Below the pieces are notes generated by a model. That model saw nothing but the letters and a program-made list of their open reading frames with translations, was not told the origin of the DNA and did not search any database. Shown piece by piece: positions 25,984 to 41,817 of a stretch of 64,000 nucleotides of DNA. Location: the IMG/VR virus record IMGVR_UViG_3300045988_087149, positions 33,102-97,101 of that record. The stretch is one strand, 5' to 3'. The stretch's first letter is position 1, and the number at the start of each line of letters is the position of its first letter. This DNA is from a virus. The position numbers and the translations under genes were made by a program.

Positions 25984-26175
25984 TTAATTTTTCTTTTTTT
26001 CTGGTTCTGTTTTATTGATAGTCCAATATCGTTGGTTTAATATCGGTTCTGTAGTTGTTGTTCCTCTTAAAGAATAGCAATGATAACAATCGCCATCACA
26101 ATAAGCCCATCCTTCTCCGCATTTTCTCATCTGTATATCCATCAGAACCATACCTTCTGATCTTGCTGAGTACAT
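25984..26175 (-). CDS. Cys-rich hypothetical protein (63 aa)
   Basis: ORF track. CGEGWAYCDGDCYHC. Confidence 0.4.
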   Translation of the reverse strand: MYSARSEGMVLMDIQMRKCGEGWAYCDGDCYHCYSLRGTTTTEPILNQRYWTINKTEPEKKKN

Positions 26176-27557
26176 ATAACCCTGCTTGATTTACCTTTTT
26201 TGATTAGATCGTCTTGTAGGGTATTGACAAATTCTACTTTGCTTGAAAATTCACTATGTACTAAGCACAATTTATCATAATTTATATTCTGATAATATTT
26301 CATTAGTTGGTTATAATTAGCATGAGATGAAAATGTATTTAAGCAATATATCTGAGCATTGTTCTGAATCAGCTCACCATCCAGCATGATTTCTTTTGCG
26401 CCATGCTTAATTTCATATGCAAGCGTATTAGGGCTAGCATATCCAGAGAATAGCACAGCATTGCGGCTATTAGGCAGGATGTATTTGAGATGCGCTAAAG
26501 CCCGTCCGGCATTAAGCATACCGCTACTAGCCACTATGATGGCTTGTTCATTTGATTGCTGAATAGCTTGGCTTTCTTCCCATGATTCAATTAGCCGCAA
26601 GTTGAGCTTATCTTCATAATCTAACTGATCTGACCATGCTCTATATATGCGGCAAGCAAGTGGCGAATCAAGATAAACAGGAATCATCTGCCCGTCAATC
26701 TTGTGCTCTGTGGCTCGTGTACGCCATAGAACATCAAGAATATCCTCTACACGCTGTAAGCTAAAAGTTGGCATCAATATGCGATTATATTGGAATATAG
26801 CCGCATTGATAATCTGCTCATCATACCAGCGGTCTTTCTTCATGCTATAACATCTAGTCGGGTCACTATATGTACATTCACCAACCACCACGTTACATCT
26901 TGGCAATGGCTCGATTGGTGGTACAGATACGCTCTTAGCCTCTGTATTGAAATCACCTGTAAAGCCAATTCGCTTGATACTATAACCCTGTTTGATTTCC
27001 AACACAGCTTGAGCTGAATGGATGATATGACCGGCATGATAATATGTCAACTTTGCACCGCCTACAATGGTCGTAGGAACGCCAAACGGCACTTCAACAA
27101 GCCATTGCATTACCTTATCAATATCGGCCTCAGTAGCCAATGGCGGCGCTTTGATACCATGCTTATTCTGCATCTTTAGGCTATCCTGCGCCATAATTTT
27201 AATGCAATCATCCATCATTATCTTGAAGATAGGGATTGAGCCTTGAGGGATATAGATATAGGCTTGCATACCCATAGCAACAGCAGCAAGTAACCCAAGA
27301 CAATGATCGGTGTGTAGGTGGGTAATGACAACACCATGTACCGTCTTTGGCTTGATTTTCTTCATCTGGTCACGATTGGCGCGATAATCAGCCACTAGAT
27401 TATTAGTCTGAATTAGACCCATATCAACCGCTAATTTGATATTGTCGAATCGAACAATCGTACATGAACCAGTTACAGATGCGGCATTACCACCAATAAA
27501 ATGCAAATATGGCTTGGATGTACCAGATGATTTAGCTGGCATTAGTAGCCTCCTCAT
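26142..27557 (-). CDS. Metallo-beta-lactamase / beta-CASP family nuclease (471 aa)
   Basis: HxHxDH motif in VVITHLHTDHCLGL. Size and later His/Asp blocks fit an RNase J / CPSF-type nuclease. Confidence 0.7.
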   Translation of the reverse strand: MRRLLMPAKSSGTSKPYLHFIGGNAASVTGSCTIVRFDNIKLAVDMGLIQTNNLVADYRANRDQMKKIKPKTVHGVVITHLHTDHCLGLLAAVAMGMQAYIYIPQGSIPIFKIMMDDCIKIMAQDSLKMQNKHGIKAPPLATEADIDKVMQWLVEVPFGVPTTIVGGAKLTYYHAGHIIHSAQAVLEIKQGYSIKRIGFTGDFNTEAKSVSVPPIEPLPRCNVVVGECTYSDPTRCYSMKKDRWYDEQIINAAIFQYNRILMPTFSLQRVEDILDVLWRTRATEHKIDGQMIPVYLDSPLACRIYRAWSDQLDYEDKLNLRLIESWEESQAIQQSNEQAIIVASSGMLNAGRALAHLKYILPNSRNAVLFSGYASPNTLAYEIKHGAKEIMLDGELIQNNAQIYCLNTFSSHANYNQLMKYYQNINYDKLCLVHSEFSSKVEFVNTLQDDLIKKGKSSRVICTQQDQKVWF

Positions 27558-29495: not shown

Positions 29496-30335
29496 TTAAA
29501 AATTAACAACGCTCATTGCATTTACTGCACGCTGCTCAGTGCGCTTGATATATCTATTTGCTGTGATAGCAACTGAGCTATGCCCCATTGCCTTACTAAT
29601 GACCTCAATAGGCACATCGGCTTCAGACATCATAGTAGCAAATGTACGGCGCATGGTATGATTACTGATATGCAATTCCTCCCAATTCTCAATACCGGCT
29701 TTTCTCGCACATACTTTGAGCATTGCACTGGTATTCTTGCCATCCATTTTATTGCCACGATTGCCAACAAACAGATATTCACAGCCATCTTTGCGCTCAT
29801 TGGCAATATAGCTATCAATCAGCTTAATTGTCTCATCAGCCAAACCAACCAATCTATCCTTATCGCCCTTACCGCGAATGACCAGAACATTATTGCTACG
29901 AGATTCGTACTGTTCAAGCGTAATATTGGCAAGCTCATGGATACGCAAGCCAGTCTGAGCAAGCATCATAATGATCGCCTTATTACGCTTATTAGTAGCC
30001 GCATTGACCATTGCCCTGACCTGTTCGCCATTAAGAGCCGATTGCTCACGATTCTTAATCTGTGGCGCTTCAAGCATCTCAGCCGGATTGCGGCTAATGA
30101 ACTCGTTCCTATAAAGGAATTTGAAATATTCACGAACCGCAGACGTTCTCTGAGCAACAGATGCAGAGCTAAGATTACTCATGCTGGACTGCCACAGCTC
30201 AAGGTCAATCGGCTTGATTTCGATTTCAGGTTTATTGACATATGTCATGCAATTCTCAATCGCCTTAGTGTATTCTCTAATCGTTCCCTCACTACGGTGC
30301 TTTGCCTTGAGGCTCATAACAAACAGTTCATTCAT
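29496..30335 (-). CDS. Tyrosine recombinase / phage integrase family (279 aa)
   Basis: Catalytic blocks LAQTGLRIHELANI (Arg), HTMRRTFATMM (H-x-x-R) and GHSSVAITANRYI (His ... Tyr). Confidence 0.85.
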   Translation of the reverse strand: MNELFVMSLKAKHRSEGTIREYTKAIENCMTYVNKPEIEIKPIDLELWQSSMSNLSSASVAQRTSAVREYFKFLYRNEFISRNPAEMLEAPQIKNREQSALNGEQVRAMVNAATNKRNKAIIMMLAQTGLRIHELANITLEQYESRSNNVLVIRGKGDKDRLVGLADETIKLIDSYIANERKDGCEYLFVGNRGNKMDGKNTSAMLKVCARKAGIENWEELHISNHTMRRTFATMMSEADVPIEVISKAMGHSSVAITANRYIKRTEQRAVNAMSVVNF

Positions 30336-30337
30336 GT

Positions 30338-30571
30338 TTACACCTCCTCAACAACGCCCTTGTAACCATAACTGGTTTCAAATGAAGCCCAAGACTTGCA
30401 ATTGCTTCTCGTGTACCAATGCGGCGTATAAACAAAATCTTCATCAGCATCAACGAGCTTACGAAGTGCGTCTCTGAGACAAGTCGCCTTAACAGTGTAC
30501 CACAAACCACGAATTTTGAAGTTTCTCATAATATTCAGCTCCTTCATTTGATGATTTAAGTATAGCACCAT
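30338..30571 (-). CDS. Hypothetical protein (77 aa; start uncertain)
   Basis: ORF track. The -10 of the promoter at 30559-30587 lies inside the annotated 5' end, so an internal Met (e.g. MKELNIM or MRNFKIR) is more likely the start. Confidence 0.4.
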   Translation of the reverse strand: MVLYLNHQMKELNIMRNFKIRGLWYTVKATCLRDALRKLVDADEDFVYTPHWYTRSNCKSWASFETSYGYKGVVEEV

Positions 30572-30587
30572 AGCGGCGATTTGTCAA
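30559..30587 (-). promoter_or_regulatory. Sigma70-type promoter, TTGACA-17-TATACT
   Basis: Reverse complement reads cTTGACAaatcgccgctatggtgcTATACT. Confidence 0.6.
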
Positions 30588-30649
30588 GAGTTATTTTTAG
30601 AAAAATCCCTATAATCTTTCGACCATAGGGATTTTAACAGGAGGATTAT

Positions 30650-30925
30650 TTACTCATTGATTTCTGCCTTTAGTGTGCTTGTCGGCTTAAACGTCAGAGC
30701 ATACTTAGCAGGAACTTCAATGGTTTCACCGGTCTGTGGATTACGAGCCGTTCTTGCATCACGCATCTTGGTTGTGAACTTGCCAAAGCCATGAATCACC
30801 ACATCTTCATGCTGAACTAGGCTATGTCTGATATAGTCAATGAACGTATCTACGATCTCAGTTGTATCCTTGACCGTATTTTCTGTGCTGTCTGCAACAA
30901 ACTTGACGATTTCTTTCTTGGTCAT
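30650..30925 (-). CDS. hup: HU/IHF-family DNA-binding protein (91 aa)
   Basis: IHGFGKFTTKMRDARTARNPQTGETIEVPAKYALTFKPTSTLK is the canonical DNABII arm signature (R-N-P-x-T). Confidence 0.85.
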   Translation of the reverse strand: MTKKEIVKFVADSTENTVKDTTEIVDTFIDYIRHSLVQHEDVVIHGFGKFTTKMRDARTARNPQTGETIEVPAKYALTFKPTSTLKAEINE

Positions 30926-30989
30926 AAATTCCTTTTAGTTTCCTTTCAATTTCTAATAAAATTTTATTAAAACAAGTCGCAATGTTCAT

Positions 30990-31538
30990 GCGCATATTGA
31001 CTTGATATATAGGGTTATTGTTCCACTATCAACTACTTACAGGGTCCTCTTACCCAAGCCTTATATTGTTTAGTGGGTTTACAGCCGCTACATCACTAAA
31101 CTAATTTTTTTTGCGTCGAACTCGACACGTCATTTATCCTTGGACTTAATGACGATTTCAGTAATGCGCGGAATAGGCAATCACCGCGCTATGAGTCTGT
31201 AGCCGACTACTCTTTGTGCTTTCTACTTTGAAGCCCGTCAACCTTGAACATTCCGGACTATTCAAGGATTTTTAGAATTTCTACACTCCCTACAAATTCA
31301 TGTTAAATTGAATTTACAGTTGCGCAACCATCTTAAAATCAAGAGTGTGGCGGCGTTGCCTTATAGTATCAGGTGGTCAACCGTCAGCTATTCAGCAACT
31401 AGCATTACAACCCATAAACTAGACCATTTGCAAGCGACCAACTCTTGGCCTTGGCCTTACAAAGCTAGGATTTTCAGCTTTTCCTCCAGACGTCTATCAA
31501 GTGTGCTTACAATGCTAGTAGAGGCATGATAGACGTTT
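30990..31538 (-). ncRNA. ORF-free transcribed segment between tRNA(CAU) and the HU gene; candidate structured RNA
   Basis: No credible minus-strand ORF. I found no promoter or terminator between it and the promoter at 32257-32285. By eye, base composition is less AT-rich than other intergenic DNA here. Confidence 0.3.
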
Positions 31539-31609
31539 TGACCGAGGCGGGACTTGAACCTGCATTCATCTGCTATGAACAGCTCGCTTACCAGTTAGCT
31601 GACTCAGTC
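31539..31609 (-). tRNA. tRNA with anticodon CAU (Met or lysidine-modified Ile2), 71 nt, no encoded CCA
   Basis: Hand-folded. Acceptor GACTGAG/CTCGGTC (one G-U). U8, A14, G18G19. Anticodon loop TTCATAG. T arm GCAGG-TTCAAGT-CCCGC. Three stem mismatches lower confidence. Confidence 0.6.
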
Positions 31610-31703
31610 ATATGGAAATGGGCTTTAAGCATCAACCCATTAGAAGCGTTGGATTCCTATTCAGTTTATTAAGTCGTATGTATCCAACAACCAGTGGACT
31701 TAA

Positions 31704-31780
31704 TGGTAGCTCAGGTGGAATTCGAATCCACACTTTACGGATTTTGAATCCGCTCCCTCTGCCGATTGGGGTACTGAGCC
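31704..31780 (-). tRNA. tRNA with anticodon CAA (UUG), class I (5-nt variable loop), CCA encoded
   Basis: Hand-folded. Acceptor GGCTCAG/CTGAGCT (G1-U72), A73, CCA. Anticodon arm GCGGA-TTCAAAA-TCCGT. T arm GTGGA-TTCGAAT-TCCAC. Confidence 0.75.
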
Positions 31781-32250
31781 ATATTATCTCAAGCCGACTT
31801 CCTACCTCATAGCTATTTCTAGCATCGACTCGTGAATGATGTTTACATAATATCCTTATATCACCTTTGCCGTTATGTTTTTGCCCTCATGCTAACGGAA
31901 CACGCTCAGGCGCGACCCCAATTCTCTAGTCTGTATCTGCCGCTTCTCAAACTCTGCGCAGACCCGCTTCACAGGCGTGATATAGATTTGACGGTTATCT
32001 TCAAATCCGGTCGGATATTATATTATTTGTCAATCTCAATCCCTTTCATTATGCCGAACAGATTGGCCGGTGCGCCCTACTTGGCATCACGGTCTTTCGC
32101 ACGACTGCGACCCGCTTTCATGCTTATCTCATTTGTCTTACGCACGTTCCCTATATAATGATGGCTGTTCCTCAAACTCCACTTAGCTGTTTCGTAACGC
32201 CCATCTGAACCATGTCAGGACTCAGCGATTTCAGCACCATCATCTTTACC
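31781..32250 (-). ncRNA. ORF-free leader of about 470 nt between the promoter and tRNA(CAA); candidate structured RNA
   Basis: Lies directly downstream of a perfect TTGACA-17-TATAAT promoter. No minus-strand ORF. Repeated GAAGCGGGTC-like blocks and many short complementary segments. Confidence 0.35.
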
Positions 32251-32256
32251 TTCTCA

Positions 32257-32285
32257 ATTATACCATATTTGATTTTATTTGTCAA
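32257..32285 (-). promoter_or_regulatory. Sigma70-type promoter, TTGACA-17-TATAAT
   Basis: Reverse complement reads cTTGACAaataaaatcaaatatggTATAAT. Confidence 0.7.
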
Positions 32286-32422
32286 GCATTATTTTTGCAA
32301 TCAACATCCCAACTGCAATACCAGCCGCAAATGAACCTAGACAAGATAGTATAATAATCATACACTAATAATCAATAAATTCTCCTAAACTCTTTACCCT
32401 ACAACTTACCCTACTTAATCAA

Positions 32423-32662
32423 CTAATCTGAATTTTCTTCATTATTAATCAATGATTTTTTTGCCATACGAGCTGATTTGAGCCGTTCTGCCGCAGCTTG
32501 TTTCTGTTCATCGGTCATTGAGCGGGTACGGAATGGATTGTTGCCTAGGCGAAATGGGTACAGATTGCAATCATGGATAACACAATTCTTTACTTCATAA
32601 GCTGAGCCACAACTACATTCCAAACAATGCTGGCGAATGGCTTTTAATGGAGATTTTTCCAT
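32423..32662 (-). CDS. Small Cys-rich protein (79 aa), TAG stop
   Basis: ORF track. AIRQHCLECSCGS ... CVIHDCNLYPFRLG, a small family common on phages and plasmids (from memory). Confidence 0.5.
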   Translation of the reverse strand: MEKSPLKAIRQHCLECSCGSAYEVKNCVIHDCNLYPFRLGNNPFRTRSMTDEQKQAAAERLKSARMAKKSLINNEENSD

Positions 32663-32680
32663 ATTATCACCTCATTCTCA

Positions 32681-32938
32681 TCAAGCATTATAGCTTGAAC
32701 ATACGATGTATGGCTTATCTACGTTAAGATTTACTTCTTCAATATGAATTTCACCTTGAAAATCCTCAAAATCAATACGATCTTCATAATTATTATTTCC
32801 ACCCACATCAACGACACGACAGTTATACTCATCGATGCTAATACGATTTCTGATTTCATCTTCGCTGTTTGCTACACACACAAATGAATCATAAGTGCCA
32901 TAATCACATTTGTCTACCCATACTTTGAATACTTTCAT
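32681..32938 (-). CDS. Hypothetical protein (85 aa)
   Basis: ORF track. Confidence 0.5.
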   Translation of the reverse strand: MKVFKVWVDKCDYGTYDSFVCVANSEDEIRNRISIDEYNCRVVDVGGNNNYEDRIDFEDFQGEIHIEEVNLNVDKPYIVCSSYNA

Positions 32939-32969
32939 ATTATCACCTCGTTATATTTAGATTTTATCA

Positions 32970-33062
32970 TGGTAGCGGCGCAGAGGGTCGAACTCTGATT
33001 TTGCCCCAATCTAGAGCTAAACTGGGTATAGGCCAGCTGGCTTACCATTAACCGACACCGCC
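32970..33062 (-). tRNA. Class II (long variable arm) tRNA, 93 nt, CCA encoded; anticodon loop CCUAUAC (formal anticodon UAU)
   Basis: Hand-folded. Acceptor GGCGGTG/CGCCGCT (G1-U72, U6-G67), A73, CCA. D arm GGTT-AATGGTA-AGCC. Anticodon arm GCTGG-CCTATAC-CCAGT. 23-nt variable region. T arm CAGAG-TTCGACC-CTCTG. Confidence 0.7.
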
Positions 33063-33164
33063 ATTTTCGTTTGAGCCTTTTATCGTCATGCTCAGGACTA
33101 TATTCTAGGAGGTTCACAATGAAGAACTGTAATTGAGATTACCCAATCTCTCAACCACATCTGT

Positions 33165-33193
33165 ATTATACCATAAGATTTGCTGTTTGTCAA
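33165..33193 (-). promoter_or_regulatory. Sigma70-type promoter, TTGACA-17-TATAAT
   Basis: Reverse complement reads cTTGACAaacagcaaatcttatggTATAAT. Positioned to drive the class II tRNA. Confidence 0.7.
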
Positions 33194-33630
33194 GAATTAT
33201 TTTTCAACTTTTTTAATGCTTCATCAAGCACGGCATTTTCATATCCATAACCAACCATCTCTGGTTTAATTTTAGTAATGGAATTTACACTCATTAAGTA
33301 TGATAAAATTTCAGCGTCTTTTTGTTTTTTATCATCTAGTTCTTTACATTTTTTCAAATATTCTTGATAATATTGCTCTTTTACTTCATTTGAAGCATCA
33401 ATTCTCTTTTTGACTCTTGCTTTAAGATAGCTTAATACAGACCTATCTAGATGACTGTAGCATTCGGCGCAAACCCAATCATACACAAGTCCAGCCGGTT
33501 CATCTGGTTCCCATTCAATTTCGTCATATACTTCCATATATCCATGATGCCGTTCAACAGTCTTTCTTTTCATTTTAATCGGCTTACCACATAACGCACA
33601 ATCGCAATACCCCTTATATACAAAGCTCAT
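33190..33630 (-). CDS. Hypothetical zinc-finger protein (146 aa)
   Basis: ORF track. CDCALCG ... CAEC. Confidence 0.5.
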   Translation of the reverse strand: MSFVYKGYCDCALCGKPIKMKRKTVERHHGYMEVYDEIEWEPDEPAGLVYDWVCAECYSHLDRSVLSYLKARVKKRIDASNEVKEQYYQEYLKKCKELDDKKQKDAEILSYLMSVNSITKIKPEMVGYGYENAVLDEALKKLKNNS

Positions 33631-33642
33631 ATTGCACCTCCA

Positions 33643-33671
33643 ATTATATAATAATTTATTTGATTTGTCAA
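33643..33671 (-). promoter_or_regulatory. Sigma70-type promoter, TTGACA-17-TATAAT
   Basis: Reverse complement reads cTTGACAaatcaaataaattattaTATAAT. Confidence 0.65.
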
Positions 33672-33674
33672 GAA

Positions 33675-33887
33675 TTATTTTTCAAGCAATTGATAAAATT
33701 TTTCTTTCCATTCACTATTCCATAAATCAATTGCATCTCGCTCTTCTGTTTGCATATAGTCATATATACAAGCCCCAACGCAATTTGCAATATACAAATA
33801 GATATCAAACGAATCTTTTGACAGTTCAGCTTGTTCGTACATTATTTTTATAAAGTAGATTAACGCATTGTTCATATTATACCTCAA
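33675..33887 (-). CDS. Hypothetical protein (70 aa; start uncertain)
   Basis: ORF track. A further promoter-like element (33876-33904) overlaps the annotated start. Confidence 0.4.
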   Translation of the reverse strand: MRYNMNNALIYFIKIMYEQAELSKDSFDIYLYIANCVGACIYDYMQTEERDAIDLWNSEWKEKFYQLLEK

Positions 33888-33900
33888 AAATCGTTATTTG

Positions 33901-34056
33901 TCAAGAACAAATTTTATTCATTTCAATAAATTTTTCACAAGTCCAGCCATTGAGAACTGGGATTTCATCACAGCTATAGCCCCATAGTCCAGTTTCTCGG
34001 TCATAGCGGTCAACGTGACAAATGAAATCCCCAATTTTGAAATAAGTATTTAGCAT
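33901..34056 (-). CDS. Small hypothetical protein (51 aa)
   Basis: Below the track cutoff. GGTGAGGA upstream. MLNTYFKIGDFICHVDRYDRETGLWGYSCDEIPVLNGWTCEKFIEMNKICS. Confidence 0.4.
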   Translation of the reverse strand: MLNTYFKIGDFICHVDRYDRETGLWGYSCDEIPVLNGWTCEKFIEMNKICS

Positions 34057-36725: not shown

Positions 36726-36925
36726 TAGCATCAAAGTCAACATCATTCACATTTTTCATATGAATATTCGCTCACCCATCACATTTTTCGTAGGAGATTT
36801 GTGTACATTCACACATTTTTCCATCGTAAAATAATGTGCGATTGTTGGTTAGCAATTTTTCTATATGATATAATATACGCAAGCTGTGAGCGCAAATTTC
36901 ACCATAGCCATGTCGTGCCAACTGT

Positions 36926-36986
36926 GCCGATTTGAGCCGAGTTTGCGCTTATCCTAAGCAAGATATGCCTACAGCCGATTTGAGCC
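36926..36986. repeat. Two 13-nt direct repeats, GCCGATTTGAGCC
   Basis: Identical copies at 36926-36938 and 36974-36986. Confidence 0.8.
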
Positions 36987-37296
36987 ATCACACCCGTCCT
37001 GAGCCGCAACGCACCACCAAGATTATATATAGGCACATATTACTGGGGAAAATTCGCTTGACCTAATCCGTACACGCACACATAAGAAAATCCGGCTCGA
37101 TTTTTTTGCGCTGAGCCATTATATGTACTGTATATTGCTGGGAAAAATGTAAAAAATTGTAAGGTGCGATCATGCTCATGCCCGCTCGACCCCTCGATTT
37201 TTTACTTCATTTGAGTAAAGCATGATGGGAAAATATGATAATTAAAGCCGTCTAACCAGATTTGTAAAAAAATGGAAATGGCCTGAAAAGTTGAAA

Positions 37297-37315
37297 TTTG
37301 TGCAGATTGCACAAA
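37297..37315. promoter_or_regulatory. Perfect inverted repeat TTTGTGCA-gat-TGCACAAA (operator-like)
   Basis: Read directly. The half-site TTGCACAAA recurs at 39983, 40204 and 40688, each near a promoter. Confidence 0.45.
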
Positions 37316-37384
37316 CATGAGTTAAATGCATTTAACCGATGGTCGACCTTCCCCTCCTCATAGGTGCTTCCCTAGGTCATTTTG

Positions 37385-37413
37385 ATTATAGCAGATCGTG
37401 CGCCATATGTCAA
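37385..37413 (-). promoter_or_regulatory. Sigma70-type promoter, TTGACA-17-TATAAT, facing a non-coding stretch
   Basis: Reverse complement reads TTGACAtatggcgcacgatctgcTATAAT. Confidence 0.65.
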
Positions 37414-37583
37414 CGAAAAAATTGCATAAAAATAAGCCGTCCATTTTGGGCATATTGTACAATACCATTTTGGCGGCTTTGACGGCTTTACACGGCGCGA
37501 ACTATGCTAGAGCTATAGAAACATAGGGAAGCAAAGAAAAGCCCGTAGCATTCAAGCTACAGGCTTTAGGGCTGTTATTCAGT

Positions 37584-37892
37584 TCACGGCAGTAAATCAT
37601 ATCTATCATATCGGGCCGATACAATCATGTCATCGTGTACGTCTTGCGTTCCCATATCGCAGAAGATACAAGTGATATCGTCTCCCACTTCATAGTCTCC
37701 CGCGTCCGTATCGAATGCATAGACCATGCCACCCGAATTTTGAACGGAAACGCGCTCCGTGTCCTTGTCTACGGTCTCAACTGCAATACAGCGGCTTGCA
37801 TCGGCATAGATTCCATATTTTAGGATATTCTTTTCCTTCGTAGCGGAAAACAGCGAAGAAATCAGCATTGCAATAGTAATAATGGCCTTCAT
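37584..37892 (-). CDS. Small secreted protein (102 aa)
   Basis: ORF track. N-terminal signal-like MKAIITIAMLISSLFSA. Confidence 0.5.
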   Translation of the reverse strand: MKAIITIAMLISSLFSATKEKNILKYGIYADASRCIAVETVDKDTERVSVQNSGGMVYAFDTDAGDYEVGDDITCIFCDMGTQDVHDDMIVSARYDRYDLLP

Positions 37893-38171
37893 TTTATATT
37901 CATTCCTTTCTTATCGATATATTTTTATCGTTTTACAATTACAAGCGGTACAACATCCGGCGAAAAAGTAATTTCATACCATCCGGAAATATCGCCGTTG
38001 TATTGCATAAATTGACTGTTTTTCAAATACTCGATATAGTACACTTGTTTTACCTCTTTTCTCACGCCTTCAGCGCCTTGCTACAGGCTTTTTAGCGCGT
38101 CGGCATATAGTTTTATATTTTTTCTGTTTGCGGCGTGTCGGGCTTGCTAGGCCGTCTCACCAAGCAATCAC

Positions 38172-38378
38172 TTACAATTTTTTTACACTTTGTACCCGCT
38201 CGACCACCTTGTAAAAAAGTGGCAGAATCTCGACGGGTGCGGGCTTGCTTCTTGACGCTGGCAACAATTTACAAATTTGTAAATAGTCTTCGTCACTGTC
38301 AATGTGATAACTGATAGAATCTGCCAGTTTCTGAAGCTGGTATAATTTTGAATCCCAGTATTTTACAGTATGTTTCAC
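38172..38378 (-). CDS. Hypothetical protein (68 aa)
   Basis: ORF track. 4-nt overlap with the upstream ORF. Confidence 0.45.
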   Translation of the reverse strand: MKHTVKYWDSKLYQLQKLADSISYHIDSDEDYLQICKLLPASRSKPAPVEILPLFYKVVERVQSVKKL

Positions 38379-38557
38379 ATTATGCCTTCTTTCTGCATGA
38401 TTCTATAAATATTTTCCGCGCTTTCTATAGTTTCGATAACGATATTTCCTTCTTTATCCTTCCACCATATCAATTTGTTATTATTTATCAAATGCGGGAA
38501 ATCGTCAGGAAATACCGCTGATTTTTTGTTTTTAAGTTGCGGATTTATAATAAACAT
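38375..38557 (-). CDS. Hypothetical protein (60 aa)
   Basis: ORF track. Confidence 0.45.
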   Translation of the reverse strand: MFIINPQLKNKKSAVFPDDFPHLINNNKLIWWKDKEGNIVIETIESAENIYRIMQKEGIM

Positions 38558-38560
38558 ATT

Positions 38561-38683
38561 TTAACCCCCTAAAATTTTCTCGATTAAATACGGAATGAAA
38601 AACAGACTTCCAATAGCTACTAGACCGCCCAGAAAGTGGAAAATCCAGTAAATGGGATTCAAGCGACGCTTACGTCTTTTCAT
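38561..38683 (-). CDS. Small membrane protein (40 aa)
   Basis: Below the track cutoff. MKRRKRRLNPIYWIFHFLGGLVAIGSLFFIPYLIEKILGG. ATGA overlap with the upstream stop. Confidence 0.4.
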   Translation of the reverse strand: MKRRKRRLNPIYWIFHFLGGLVAIGSLFFIPYLIEKILGG

Positions 38684-38883
38684 ATAGAATAAACTCCATT
38701 CTTATTTTCTGATTTTAATTTACAGATTGTGACAAAAGTAGTATCAAAATATTTGATAGCTTTTTCTTTTGCTTCATCTTCGTTATCTGCTAAAATAATC
38801 AATGGATCAAAATTTTCTGTATATATTTTATATGCGACAAAAATATGTTTTGCAATGGTGCAATATGCATCTTCTTTAGTCAT
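38680..38883 (-). CDS. Hypothetical protein (67 aa)
   Basis: ORF track. Confidence 0.45.
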   Translation of the reverse strand: MTKEDAYCTIAKHIFVAYKIYTENFDPLIILADNEDEAKEKAIKYFDTTFVTICKLKSENKNGVYSI

Positions 38884-38886
38884 ATT

Positions 38887-40603: not shown

Positions 40604-40869
40604 TGTAATAGCTTCCTTTCAAAATGTTTTTTATTTCATTTGATGCCAAGATAATATCATATCGAACCGTCTTTGTCTATTGACATTTTGCACAAAAGTT
40701 ATATTCTTGAATTGTATAAAATGACAATAGGTTATTTTGTCCAGATACCGAAAAAGCTATGAAGCCGCTCAGAGGCTCTAGAAGCCCCGTAGCGCCGTTT
40801 TTAGGCCAAGACGTGAAATCATACGGCAAAGAAAAGTATTCCGTTATACGCTTTTCATGCAATTTTATT

Positions 40870-41340
40870 ATTCACTGTTTTGATAGTAAATAACTATAAT
40901 ATACAAGTAAAAAGTTAGAATATACTAGAATTGATTGAATTATTGTATATATATGATATGAATATACTGCATGATTATTCATTCATTGCTTATTAGTACA
41001 ATATCTTAATAGTTATATAAATATAATTATATCGATATTGATTATTGTATGTTTTTATCGATAGATTATATTGGTATAAGTAGCTATATATTGTACTGAT
41101 TATAATAGTTACAATATGTTGCATAGTGGTAACAGTATTTGAATATCGATATAATAGTATTTAATATGATATCTTGTGTAGTGTATTAGATGGTATAGTA
41201 TGGTATAGTAGTTTGTATAATATAGATAGTTGAGTAAATGGGGTTTACTGGTAAGTGTAAATATGGTTTACCAAAAAGCGCATAATGTGTAATGTGTATG
41301 CGCGTATGAACTGTATTAGTTCGATTGATACAGTTGGAAA
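40870..41340. repeat. Very AT-rich tract packed with TATAAT/GTATAG/ATTGTA-like words, including the tandem TGGTATAGTA x2 (41191-41210)
   Basis: Read directly. No ORF. Confidence 0.6.
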
Positions 41341-41817
41341 AATTTTACTCTACAATTGTAGAATAAGATTGACTCGCATAATCATGCGATAAATATCGCA
41401 TTTTCATATGAAACAGTGGGAAAGTGCTATTTTCAGGCGTTTTTACTACTGGCAGTATTTTACAGTACCGGGGCATGGTTATGGATGAGAATGGTAGAAA
41501 TGGGAGAAAATGGCACTTAGCACAACAAATCACATAACATGTAATACATCATCTATTTTAACAAACTATATACTACGCAATTCGCAATCCAAACTATGCA
41601 CCTTATAAATATTTAAGAACAGCACAATTAAAAAAATCAATCCAATAATTTTAATTAAACTTAATGATCTAACATATAATTAAACCAAGTTTTAATTATT
41701 CATAATTTACAATTTGTTAACAAATAACAAATAAAAATATGGTATAATTAGATAATGATAAAAAGTTGTACAATCGATGATACTAATATAATACGCTAGT
41801 ATTATTATAGTGTCACG

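Follow-up and report, generated by a model that had tools for sequence, protein, structure and literature searches.

A tRNA-containing island of an uncultured human-gut phage as a fixed-order mosaic of separable, predicted RNA domains

This work concerns a 1.35-kb stretch without a credible open reading frame (ORF) on the minus strand of a ~90-kb uncultured human-gut phage, located between a small zinc-ribbon-like gene and the gene of an HU-family DNA-binding protein. It lies within a 64,000-nt stretch of DNA, referred to here as the window, which comprises positions 33,102 to 97,101 of IMG/VR virus record IMGVR_UViG_3300045988_087149; all positions given are those of the whole 64,000-nt stretch. 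From its promoter to the HU gene, this island is built of domains that, judged by comparison with related phages, are conserved folds of the transcribed strand, are individually present or absent in a fixed order, and match no catalogued RNA family. Our favoured reading, to which we assign a probability of roughly 0.55, is that the island is accessory, is transcribed early and strings together structured RNAs that are independent of one another, with tRNAs and tRNA-like elements as optional cargo and likely processing points; the released domains would act in trans.

Results

Conserved and covarying RNA domains

Related phages were collected from IMG/VR using the HU protein and the 79-aa protein encoded upstream as anchors, which yielded 26 contigs of 47-101 kb. 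An exact-pattern metagenome scan added ~42 contigs, mostly from the human gut and mostly ~85-98 kb in length. The promoter-to-HU interval of 51 distinct relatives was decomposed with BLAST, and the module counts given below are over 52 islands. Related phage contigs are designated with L-numbers and alternative modules with N-numbers.

Domain B (31851-32017; 46 of 52 islands) is predicted to fold into a closed multi-helix junction of seven helices, with closing stems UAUCC/GGAUA and AUAUCAC/GUGAUAU. Among 36 distinct sequences aligned with MAFFT alone, without fitting to the structure, 99.5% of the cells are paired and 12 of the 37 base pairs show compensatory changes, a value reached by none of 500 shuffles, while slid registers give 1-4.

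In domain D (31352-31539; 45 of 52 islands), three hairpins, namely H2, H3 and the two-stem H1 (outer and inner), accompany a core helix that contains a tandem G·A internal loop. The swapped hairpins of this domain escaped RNAalifold when it was run on an unmodified MAFFT alignment, because their stems had been placed one column out of register. Its structure was drawn by hand on the window sequence, and a covariance model (R1) built from 13 near-identical sequences was used to align all relatives. R1 scores 218.9 bits in the window and gives one hit per related phage, namely 55 full-length hits of 115-236 bits and two truncated hits of 75-84 bits. Across the 44 distinct sequences of the model-fitted alignment, 91.4% of the cells are paired (30-40% in slid registers), and compensatory changes occur in 23 of 41 pairs and 251 cells (16-50 cells when slid). 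Hairpin H1 exists in at least five versions of unrelated sequence, with up to 4-5 pair types per position, all predicted to adopt one two-tier hairpin shape around AGCAUUGUAA, the conserved loop. Two further long-range, loop-to-core pairings, AGCAUUG:UAAUGCU and UGGUCR:UGACCA, are paired in 99.3% of the cells; they are consistent with the data and are regarded as candidate pseudoknots only.

The other modules vary in how they have changed. Module A (32027-32154; 41 of 52 islands) combines a near-invariant core, consisting of P1 (GUGCGU/GCGCAC), P2 (GCAU/AUGC) and a long 3' hairpin (GUCAAUCUGUUC/GGAUUGGGAUUGAC), with an interchangeable peripheral hairpin: a single site carries four unrelated hairpins of different length. 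In hairpin C (31790-31832, within module C at 31848-31781; 51 of 52 islands), the inner stem is capped by GAAA, and the asymmetric internal loop of 13 nt (UAUGAGGUAGGAA) is invariant. This hairpin shows three compensatory pairs among 37 distinct sequences and ends ~10 nt before the first tRNA. Module D2 (31272-31351; 25 units) is a small multi-hairpin element with closing stem CCACACUC/GAGUGU(R)GG and showed one-sided changes only in an automatic alignment. Module E (31165-31271), with three predicted hairpins, has three compensatory pairs among five distinct sequences.

The ratio of G·U to A·C juxtapositions is 100:4 in B and 130:35 in D, an excess which indicates that folding takes place on the strand that is transcribed. 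Relative to the window, identity is 71-96% for B, 86-99% for C and 80-93% for D, against 45-84% at fourfold-degenerate sites of the HU gene. In the most distant relatives, L024 and L025, these HU sites are only 45-48% identical, compared to 88-89% for B and 93-95% for C. The modules are thus generally more conserved than the silent sites, and the compensatory changes together with this conservation show selection on RNA structure and sequence. We regard B and D as likely new, covariation-supported folds, and A, C and E more tentatively so. The sequence-only reading that preceded this analysis had proposed that the long segments flanking the tRNAs are real structured non-coding RNA. Covariation in the relatives, the strand-specific G·U pairs and conservation above the fourfold HU sites bear this out, and its question whether the segments are kept in other phages is answered by their conservation and covariation across the relatives.

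Mosaic organisation in related phages

The unit ranges from 428 to 2363 nt in length across the relatives, and in three phages (L007, L008 and L019) the HU gene follows directly behind the 79-aa gene without any island. The order of modules is nevertheless identical in all 52 islands. Its 5' part consists of the promoter, one of several leaders, A, B, an optional 290-nt module, C and a first tRNA slot. The 3' part continues with a spacer or a 347-nt module, a second slot, D, D2 or its alternatives, E or its alternatives, F and the HU gene. Domains come and go singly: A occurs without B in six islands and B without A in eleven, D is missing from seven and C from one. In relatives, D2 alternates with the unrelated modules N16 and N23, and E with N10, N06 and N24, whereas F2, the segment next to HU, is retained even where there is no island. 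In total, the pan-locus holds more than ten ORF-free modules. Leaving aside an endonuclease insert in N08, the alternative modules examined contain no transcribed-strand ORF of at least 45 aa except one of 46 aa in N01, and several show compensatory changes of their own.

One alternative module holds a catalogued RNA. In L022, a match to RAGATH-33 (positions 2123-2235 of that contig; 139.9 bits, gathering score 120.4) lies within the 375-nt module N14, between the leader and A; N14 is also present in L023. Since it sits in the homologous promoter-to-HU island, RAGATH-33 can be considered one cassette of this locus.

The ORF-free stretch before the first tRNA of the window measures ~470 nt and the one between the second tRNA and HU ~610 nt. 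The view of these long segments (then taken as 470 and 550 nt) as single large RNAs does not hold: they are made up of domains of ~45-190 nt (A, B and C; D, D2, E and F) that occur or are lost independently. An integron-like cassette array was also considered and dropped, given the fixed order in the 52 islands and the lack of a common boundary repeat in the module decomposition.

The locus appears to be confined to one phage clade. The signature of domain D has no match in 185,579 GTDB species genomes and that of module C two matches at chance level in the same set; IMG/VR searches with both signatures returned contigs of this phage clade only. In a blastn search of INPHARED, the tRNA-Leu was the only part of the region to match, hence no cultured phage relative shares the region. 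The DNA polymerase III alpha subunit of the phage shows at most 39% identity to an uncultured human-fecal phage record and ~36% to that of the nearest cultured phages, which infect Bacillus and Geobacillus.

tRNA and tRNA-like elements

The sequence-only reading had placed two tRNAs, with anticodons CAA and CAU, in the unit. Both were recovered with ARAGORN, the CAU one as a weak candidate. Slot 1 of the window holds tRNA-Leu(CAA) (31704-31780; Rfam 56.6 bits), a 77-nt element in which CCA is encoded, G1 is paired with U72 and the variable arm is short. The long arm that bacterial leucine tRNAs usually have at this place is absent, and the charging identity of the element is uncertain. In relatives, slot 1 is occupied by this 77-nt Leu(CAA), an 85-nt long-arm Leu(CAA/UAA), Phe(GAA) or Gly(UCC), or is empty. 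In L004 and L173, module N08 carries a 185-aa HNH/NUMOD-like homing-endonuclease ORF inside the island, directly downstream of the 85-nt tRNA-Leu.

The spacer between the two slots (31611-31703) measures 93 nt rather than the 94 nt reported before. The 7-bp stem GTTGGAT/ATCCAAC noted there is present (31688-31682 / 31654-31648), although the minimum free energy (MFE) structure of the single sequence favours a competing stem, UUAAGUC/GACUUAA, over it. A conserved hairpin at the 3' end of the spacer, AAUGGGUU...AGCCCAUU, is kept in many relatives.

Slot 2 of the window (31538-31610) contains a weak tRNA or tRNA-like element with anticodon CAU, which scores 33.5 bits against an Rfam gathering score of 29 and has mismatches in the anticodon and T stems. 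Across relatives, the slot is filled by a tRNA or a tRNA-like element, or is empty. The anticodon was compared between the window element and relatives L005, L009, L010, L153, L147 and L155. The scaffold stays constant while the anticodon varies between close relatives, one scaffold appearing with UAU, UAC, UGU and AAU and another with CAU, UAG and AGU. Between L005 and L010, 6 of 1138 positions differ, and one of these six is anticodon position 36. Such changes may reflect diversifying selection on the anticodon or lost decoding. Further versions of slot 2 have U33C, two mismatches beside the loop, or a 3-nt loop. In L021, L167, L162 and L024, the stem of the anticodon arm runs without a break up to a loop of 3 nt and there is no anticodon, while the Rfam tRNA model gives up to 41 bits. 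Owing to the 3-nt 'anticodon' loop or U33C, some slot-2 elements appear unable to decode while they retain the acceptor and T arms, which would fit a role as processing signals rather than decoders.

Nine of the 52 islands have no tRNA detectable by ARAGORN and yet carry RNA domains. The existence of such islands identifies the structured domains as the island core and the tRNAs as its cargo.

Upstream of the unit, a tRNA-Ile(UAU) of 93 nt with a ~20-nt extra arm (33062-32970) stands behind its own perfect promoter (33165-33193); its counterparts in relatives measure 76 nt or 90-95 nt.

Searches against known RNA families

All 4227 Rfam families were searched with cmscan: over the whole window at the gathering threshold, over positions 30400-33300 at E ≤ 10 with permissive filters, and over the islands of the relatives. 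The search of 30400-33300 returned three tRNAs and noise only. The classes ROOL, GOLLD and group I intron, which the sequence-only reading had put forward for an Infernal scan, found no support in it. Neither ROOL nor GOLLD has a covariance-model match in 30400-33300 (E ≤ 10), in the whole window (gathering threshold) or in the islands of the relatives. Group I introns and hammerhead, twister, pistol and hatchet ribozymes gave no match in the window region at E ≤ 10 or in the islands of L167 and L022 at E ≤ 1. Permuted tmRNA reached 13.2 bits (E = 9.4; gathering score 47) and ARAGORN found no tmRNA, while RNase P RNA had no match at E ≤ 10 in 30400-33300. The concern that the long segments might be additional degenerate tRNAs can likewise be set aside, as neither ARAGORN nor Rfam at E ≤ 10 detects any in 32250-31781 or 31537-30926.

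Two motif resemblances were dropped, as neither a model match nor the architecture supports them: RNase P-like motifs in module C (GAGG..GGAAGUC..GGCUU) and hammerhead-like CUGAUG words in domain D. No module has a further copy elsewhere in the window, except for promoter look-alikes, which also occur around 35600, 36320 and 41730. The window contains another catalogued candidate structured RNA, DUF3800-VIII, at 54236-54303 on the plus strand (46.0 bits; gathering score 40.2).

Layout, coding potential and transcription signals

The promoter-driven, ORF-free unit with two embedded tRNAs and a following HU gene, as described in the sequence-only reading, was recovered with every listed feature in place; on the minus strand, promoter, tRNA-Leu(CAA), spacer, weak tRNA(CAU), HU gene and a terminator follow each other. 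The promoter (32257-32285) is a sigma-70 consensus with TTGACA, a 17-nt spacer with a TG extension and TATAAT. All 12 hexamer positions match, as had been claimed, and transcription would start near 32250. Leader L1 (32155-32250) is a variable 5' segment whose full version is found in three units only, with alternative leaders elsewhere. At the other end, modules E2, F1 and F2 form the HU-proximal leader (30926-31164), in which F2 (31007-30926) includes the ribosome-binding site of HU. The identification of the HU gene (30650-30925; 91 aa) was correct (Pfam Bac_DNA_binding, E = 1.6e-30), and it is followed by an intrinsic terminator (30602-30636) with a 15-bp hairpin of -19.3 kcal/mol and UUUUU.

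The longest ORFs on the transcribed strand of the unit measure 37, 35, 33, 32 and 26 aa, in line with the statement that no credible one exists there. An antisense 108-aa ORF with a GTG start (31832-32158) is disrupted in relatives by hairpin swaps of 27, 13, 41 and 21 nt. Inside the unit, there are no terminator-like sites by strict criteria and promoter-like matches reach 9/12 only, so the earlier description of an uninterrupted unit stands. Just upstream of HU, F2 contains two signals that make co-transcription of HU with the island likely rather than certain: at 31004-30965, a weak hairpin of -7.1 kcal/mol with UUUU behind it, and at 30988-30961, a promoter-like sequence with 9/12 matches.

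The GC content of the unit is 0.42-0.48, against 0.29-0.39 upstream, and the long segments are indeed compositionally balanced rather than AT-rich. The GC-rich words pointed out in them do exist, each once (32119-32105 and 31970-31954), and represent the tips of two variable hairpins, in A and B, instead of a repeat system. Within 3.4 kb on this strand (30559-33904) there are four perfect 12/12 promoters (at 33904, 33671, 33193 and 32285) and one 11/12 promoter (30587). This density of consensus promoters suggests a strongly transcribed early region.

Neighbouring features

A tyrosine recombinase gene (29496-30335) lies downstream of the unit, on the same strand and with its own promoter. Further along the minus strand, 26142-27557 encodes a protein of 471 aa that has Beta-Casp and RMMBL (RNA-specificity) domains and is similar to nucleases of the RNase J or CPSF type. 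It is a possible phage-encoded RNA-processing enzyme and the only candidate RNA-handling partner found with Pfam among 30 neighbouring proteins. Three other stretches of 0.9-1.4 kb (443-1840, 36729-38886 and 40655-41809) lack an ORF of at least 70 aa on either strand and have no Rfam match at the gathering threshold. They could hold small genes or more non-coding RNA.

Discussion

Proposed mechanism and its weak points

In the reading that we favour, the one strong promoter would probably yield a single precursor RNA with A, B and C before the tRNAs and D, D2 and E after them, the tRNA cargo lying between C and D. Host RNase P would cut at the 5' ends of the tRNAs, and RNase Z or exonucleases would act on their 3' ends; release by RNase P and RNase Z had been proposed in the sequence-only reading and is a reasonable expectation. 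The products would be a ~470-nt A-B-C RNA, the tRNAs, the spacer and a D-E-F-HU RNA whose 5' end would be capped, 3-4 nt in, by the stable hairpin H1. Once freed, the domains would function in trans, as stable RNAs whose target is a host or phage factor. Trans-acting stable RNAs are favoured because the predicted strong early expression, the dispensability and the rapid exchange of modules resemble loci for host takeover or counter-defence.

Several points weigh against this reading. Transcription, cleavage and RNA stability of the island are all deduced from the sequence, and our analysis ties its RNAs to no specific target or defence system. The pairing counts of domain D lean towards structure, as its alignment was fitted to the model, a caveat of which B is free. 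Independent events per helix are few (~3-5 haplotype classes), and recombination among relatives inflates the cell counts. No double changes occur in the two candidate pseudoknots of D, in which all substitutions are wobble-compatible. Comparison of the MFE with shuffled sequences, a check suggested along with the sequence-only reading, gives z = -2.63 for the trailing segment and z = +0.25 for the leader, whose stability does not exceed that of its shuffled versions; taken by itself, thermodynamic stability is ambiguous evidence. Finally, the nine islands without a detectable tRNA imply that tRNA punctuation is not a general mechanism of release.

Alternative explanations

The first alternative is that the segments work in cis only, by protecting the precursor, assisting tRNA maturation or controlling the stability or translation of the HU mRNA, for instance as a 5' stabiliser hairpin that blocks a 5'-to-3' exonuclease after tRNA 3' processing or as a long regulatory 5' untranslated region. 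The position of the hairpins agrees with such a role, as H1 starts 3-4 nt past the 3' end of tRNA(CAU) and C closes shortly before the first tRNA, and so do the lack of a strict terminator from promoter to HU and the universal retention of F2 with the HU ribosome-binding site. We consider it unlikely all the same: L007, L008 and L019 have HU without an island, single domains are gained or lost while the downstream gene is unchanged, and A, B and C remain in islands devoid of tRNAs. Moreover, a simple stabiliser would not require loops as intricate and conserved as those of D, the candidate pseudoknots of this domain or the internal loop that is invariant in C.

A more specific variant of the trans-acting array, which we hold to be rather doubtful, regards the locus as a recombining RNA 'cassette library'. 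Expressed from one early promoter together with tRNA-like elements, its fixed-order, interchangeable domains would counter host defences that target or sense RNA, either as decoys or as inhibitors. The slot-2 anticodon would be under diversifying selection, and D, with its pseudoknots, would represent a new functional RNA class with a specific molecular target.

Alternatively, the island could be selfish or residual and of no benefit to the phage: homing endonucleases or hot spots of recombination may have spread its cassettes, or these may be what is left of a decaying tRNA array. The extreme mosaicism, the HNH homing-endonuclease ORF behind tRNA-Leu in two relatives, the variable tRNA cargo with some degenerate slot-2 elements and the dispensability of the entire island are all compatible with this. 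That the domains are under selection, as the compensatory changes and the conservation above silent sites show, is hard to reconcile with it, and the long segments of the window contain no tRNA signal at E ≤ 10. In addition, independently mobile cassettes would not be expected to keep a fixed order, and shared boundary repeats were not seen, which leaves this explanation with little probability.

A single large ornate RNA of the GOLLD/ROOL type, or a divergent member, that embeds the tRNAs and assembles into a multimeric particle would share with the island its phage-borne, ORF-free, tRNA-adjacent and richly structured nature, its GNRA loops and its candidate long-range pairings, and has precedent in the literature (PMC5737381, PMC12286853). 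The absence of a ROOL or GOLLD model match at E ≤ 10 in the window region, and of one in the relatives, together with the islands that have A without B, B without A or no D, which rule out an obligate large fold, makes it very improbable.

The chance is equally slim that the hairpins work at the level of DNA, as single-stranded structures or protein-binding sites of an origin, packaging signal or recombination site with transcription being incidental or serving a primer or R-loop: the island does lie in an early/replication region, with HU and the tyrosine recombinase downstream and a strong promoter reading in, and single-stranded DNA also tolerates G·T pairs, but three relatives without an island and others with as little as 428 nt exclude an essential origin or packaging site, there are no iterons or AT-rich unwinding element, the tRNAs are embedded on the same strand, and the fixed module order speaks against integron-like cassette insertion.

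Significance

The function of tRNA-adjacent structured RNAs of phages, GOLLD, ROOL and the RAGATH motifs among them, is unexplained, and this locus adds several new folds to this group. The modules that are naturally present or absent among ~50 closely related phages amount to a ready-made deletion series: direct comparison of phages with a single-domain difference makes it easier to test what such RNAs do. RAGATH-33 gains a defined transcriptional context, and the tRNA-like elements without usable anticodons represent possible processing punctuation in a DNA phage. The reach of these results is limited by the narrow phylogenetic range of the locus and by their basis in sequence only.

Comparison with known systems

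The presence of RNAs adjacent to tRNAs in phages is known; what is new here are the RNA folds and the unusual way in which several domains are lined up like cassettes in a fixed order. In phages, GOLLD and ROOL are found close to tRNAs, with which they may share a transcript (PMC5737381). They have in common with the present island that they are phage- or prophage-borne, ORF-free, of complex conserved structure and unexplained function, and often located beside tRNA genes. They differ from it in being one fold of 500-800 nt, while the island consists of separable domains of 45-190 nt, each of them dispensable, in one clade of gut phages.

RAGATH-33 occupies the same promoter-to-HU slot in L022, but has no match in the window, where A, B, C, D and E have other sequences and folds and belong to no Rfam family. 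It is reportedly Weinberg et al. (2017) who introduced RAGATH-33 as a candidate structured RNA; our literature search found no paper naming it.

At a fixed locus, the tRNA operon of phage T4 combines eight tRNAs with a pair of small stable RNAs (species 1 and 2, rnaC/rnaD). These two are functionally unexplained non-tRNA RNAs that are co-transcribed with the tRNAs and freed by the tRNA-processing machinery. By analogy, the island also has non-tRNA RNAs beside phage tRNAs, with release by the same route only proposed here, and co-transcription with the tRNAs as in a T4-type operon is plausible given one promoter, a shared strand and no strict terminator. In contrast to T4, the island has more than 1 kb of structured RNA against 150 nt of tRNA, its tRNAs are optional and its content is hypervariable.

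Precursors punctuated by tRNAs or tRNA-like structures are known from mitochondrial transcripts and from the tRNA-like 3' end of MALAT1/mascRNA. The island would resemble these in having tRNA or tRNA-like folds between RNA segments, some of them without a usable anticodon loop. Here, however, such punctuation is not universal, being undetectable in nine islands.

Lastly, Fremin and Bhatt (2023; PMC10690425) catalogued 8,495 candidate structured RNAs from IMG/VR, among which many tRNA-like and short structured motifs, some of them highly expressed in gut small-RNA-seq. That catalogue and our analysis share their data source, namely gut phage contigs of IMG/VR, and parts of the locus may already be among its 8,495 unnamed candidates. 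Whereas the catalogue describes isolated short motifs, the island described here is a multi-domain mosaic locus.

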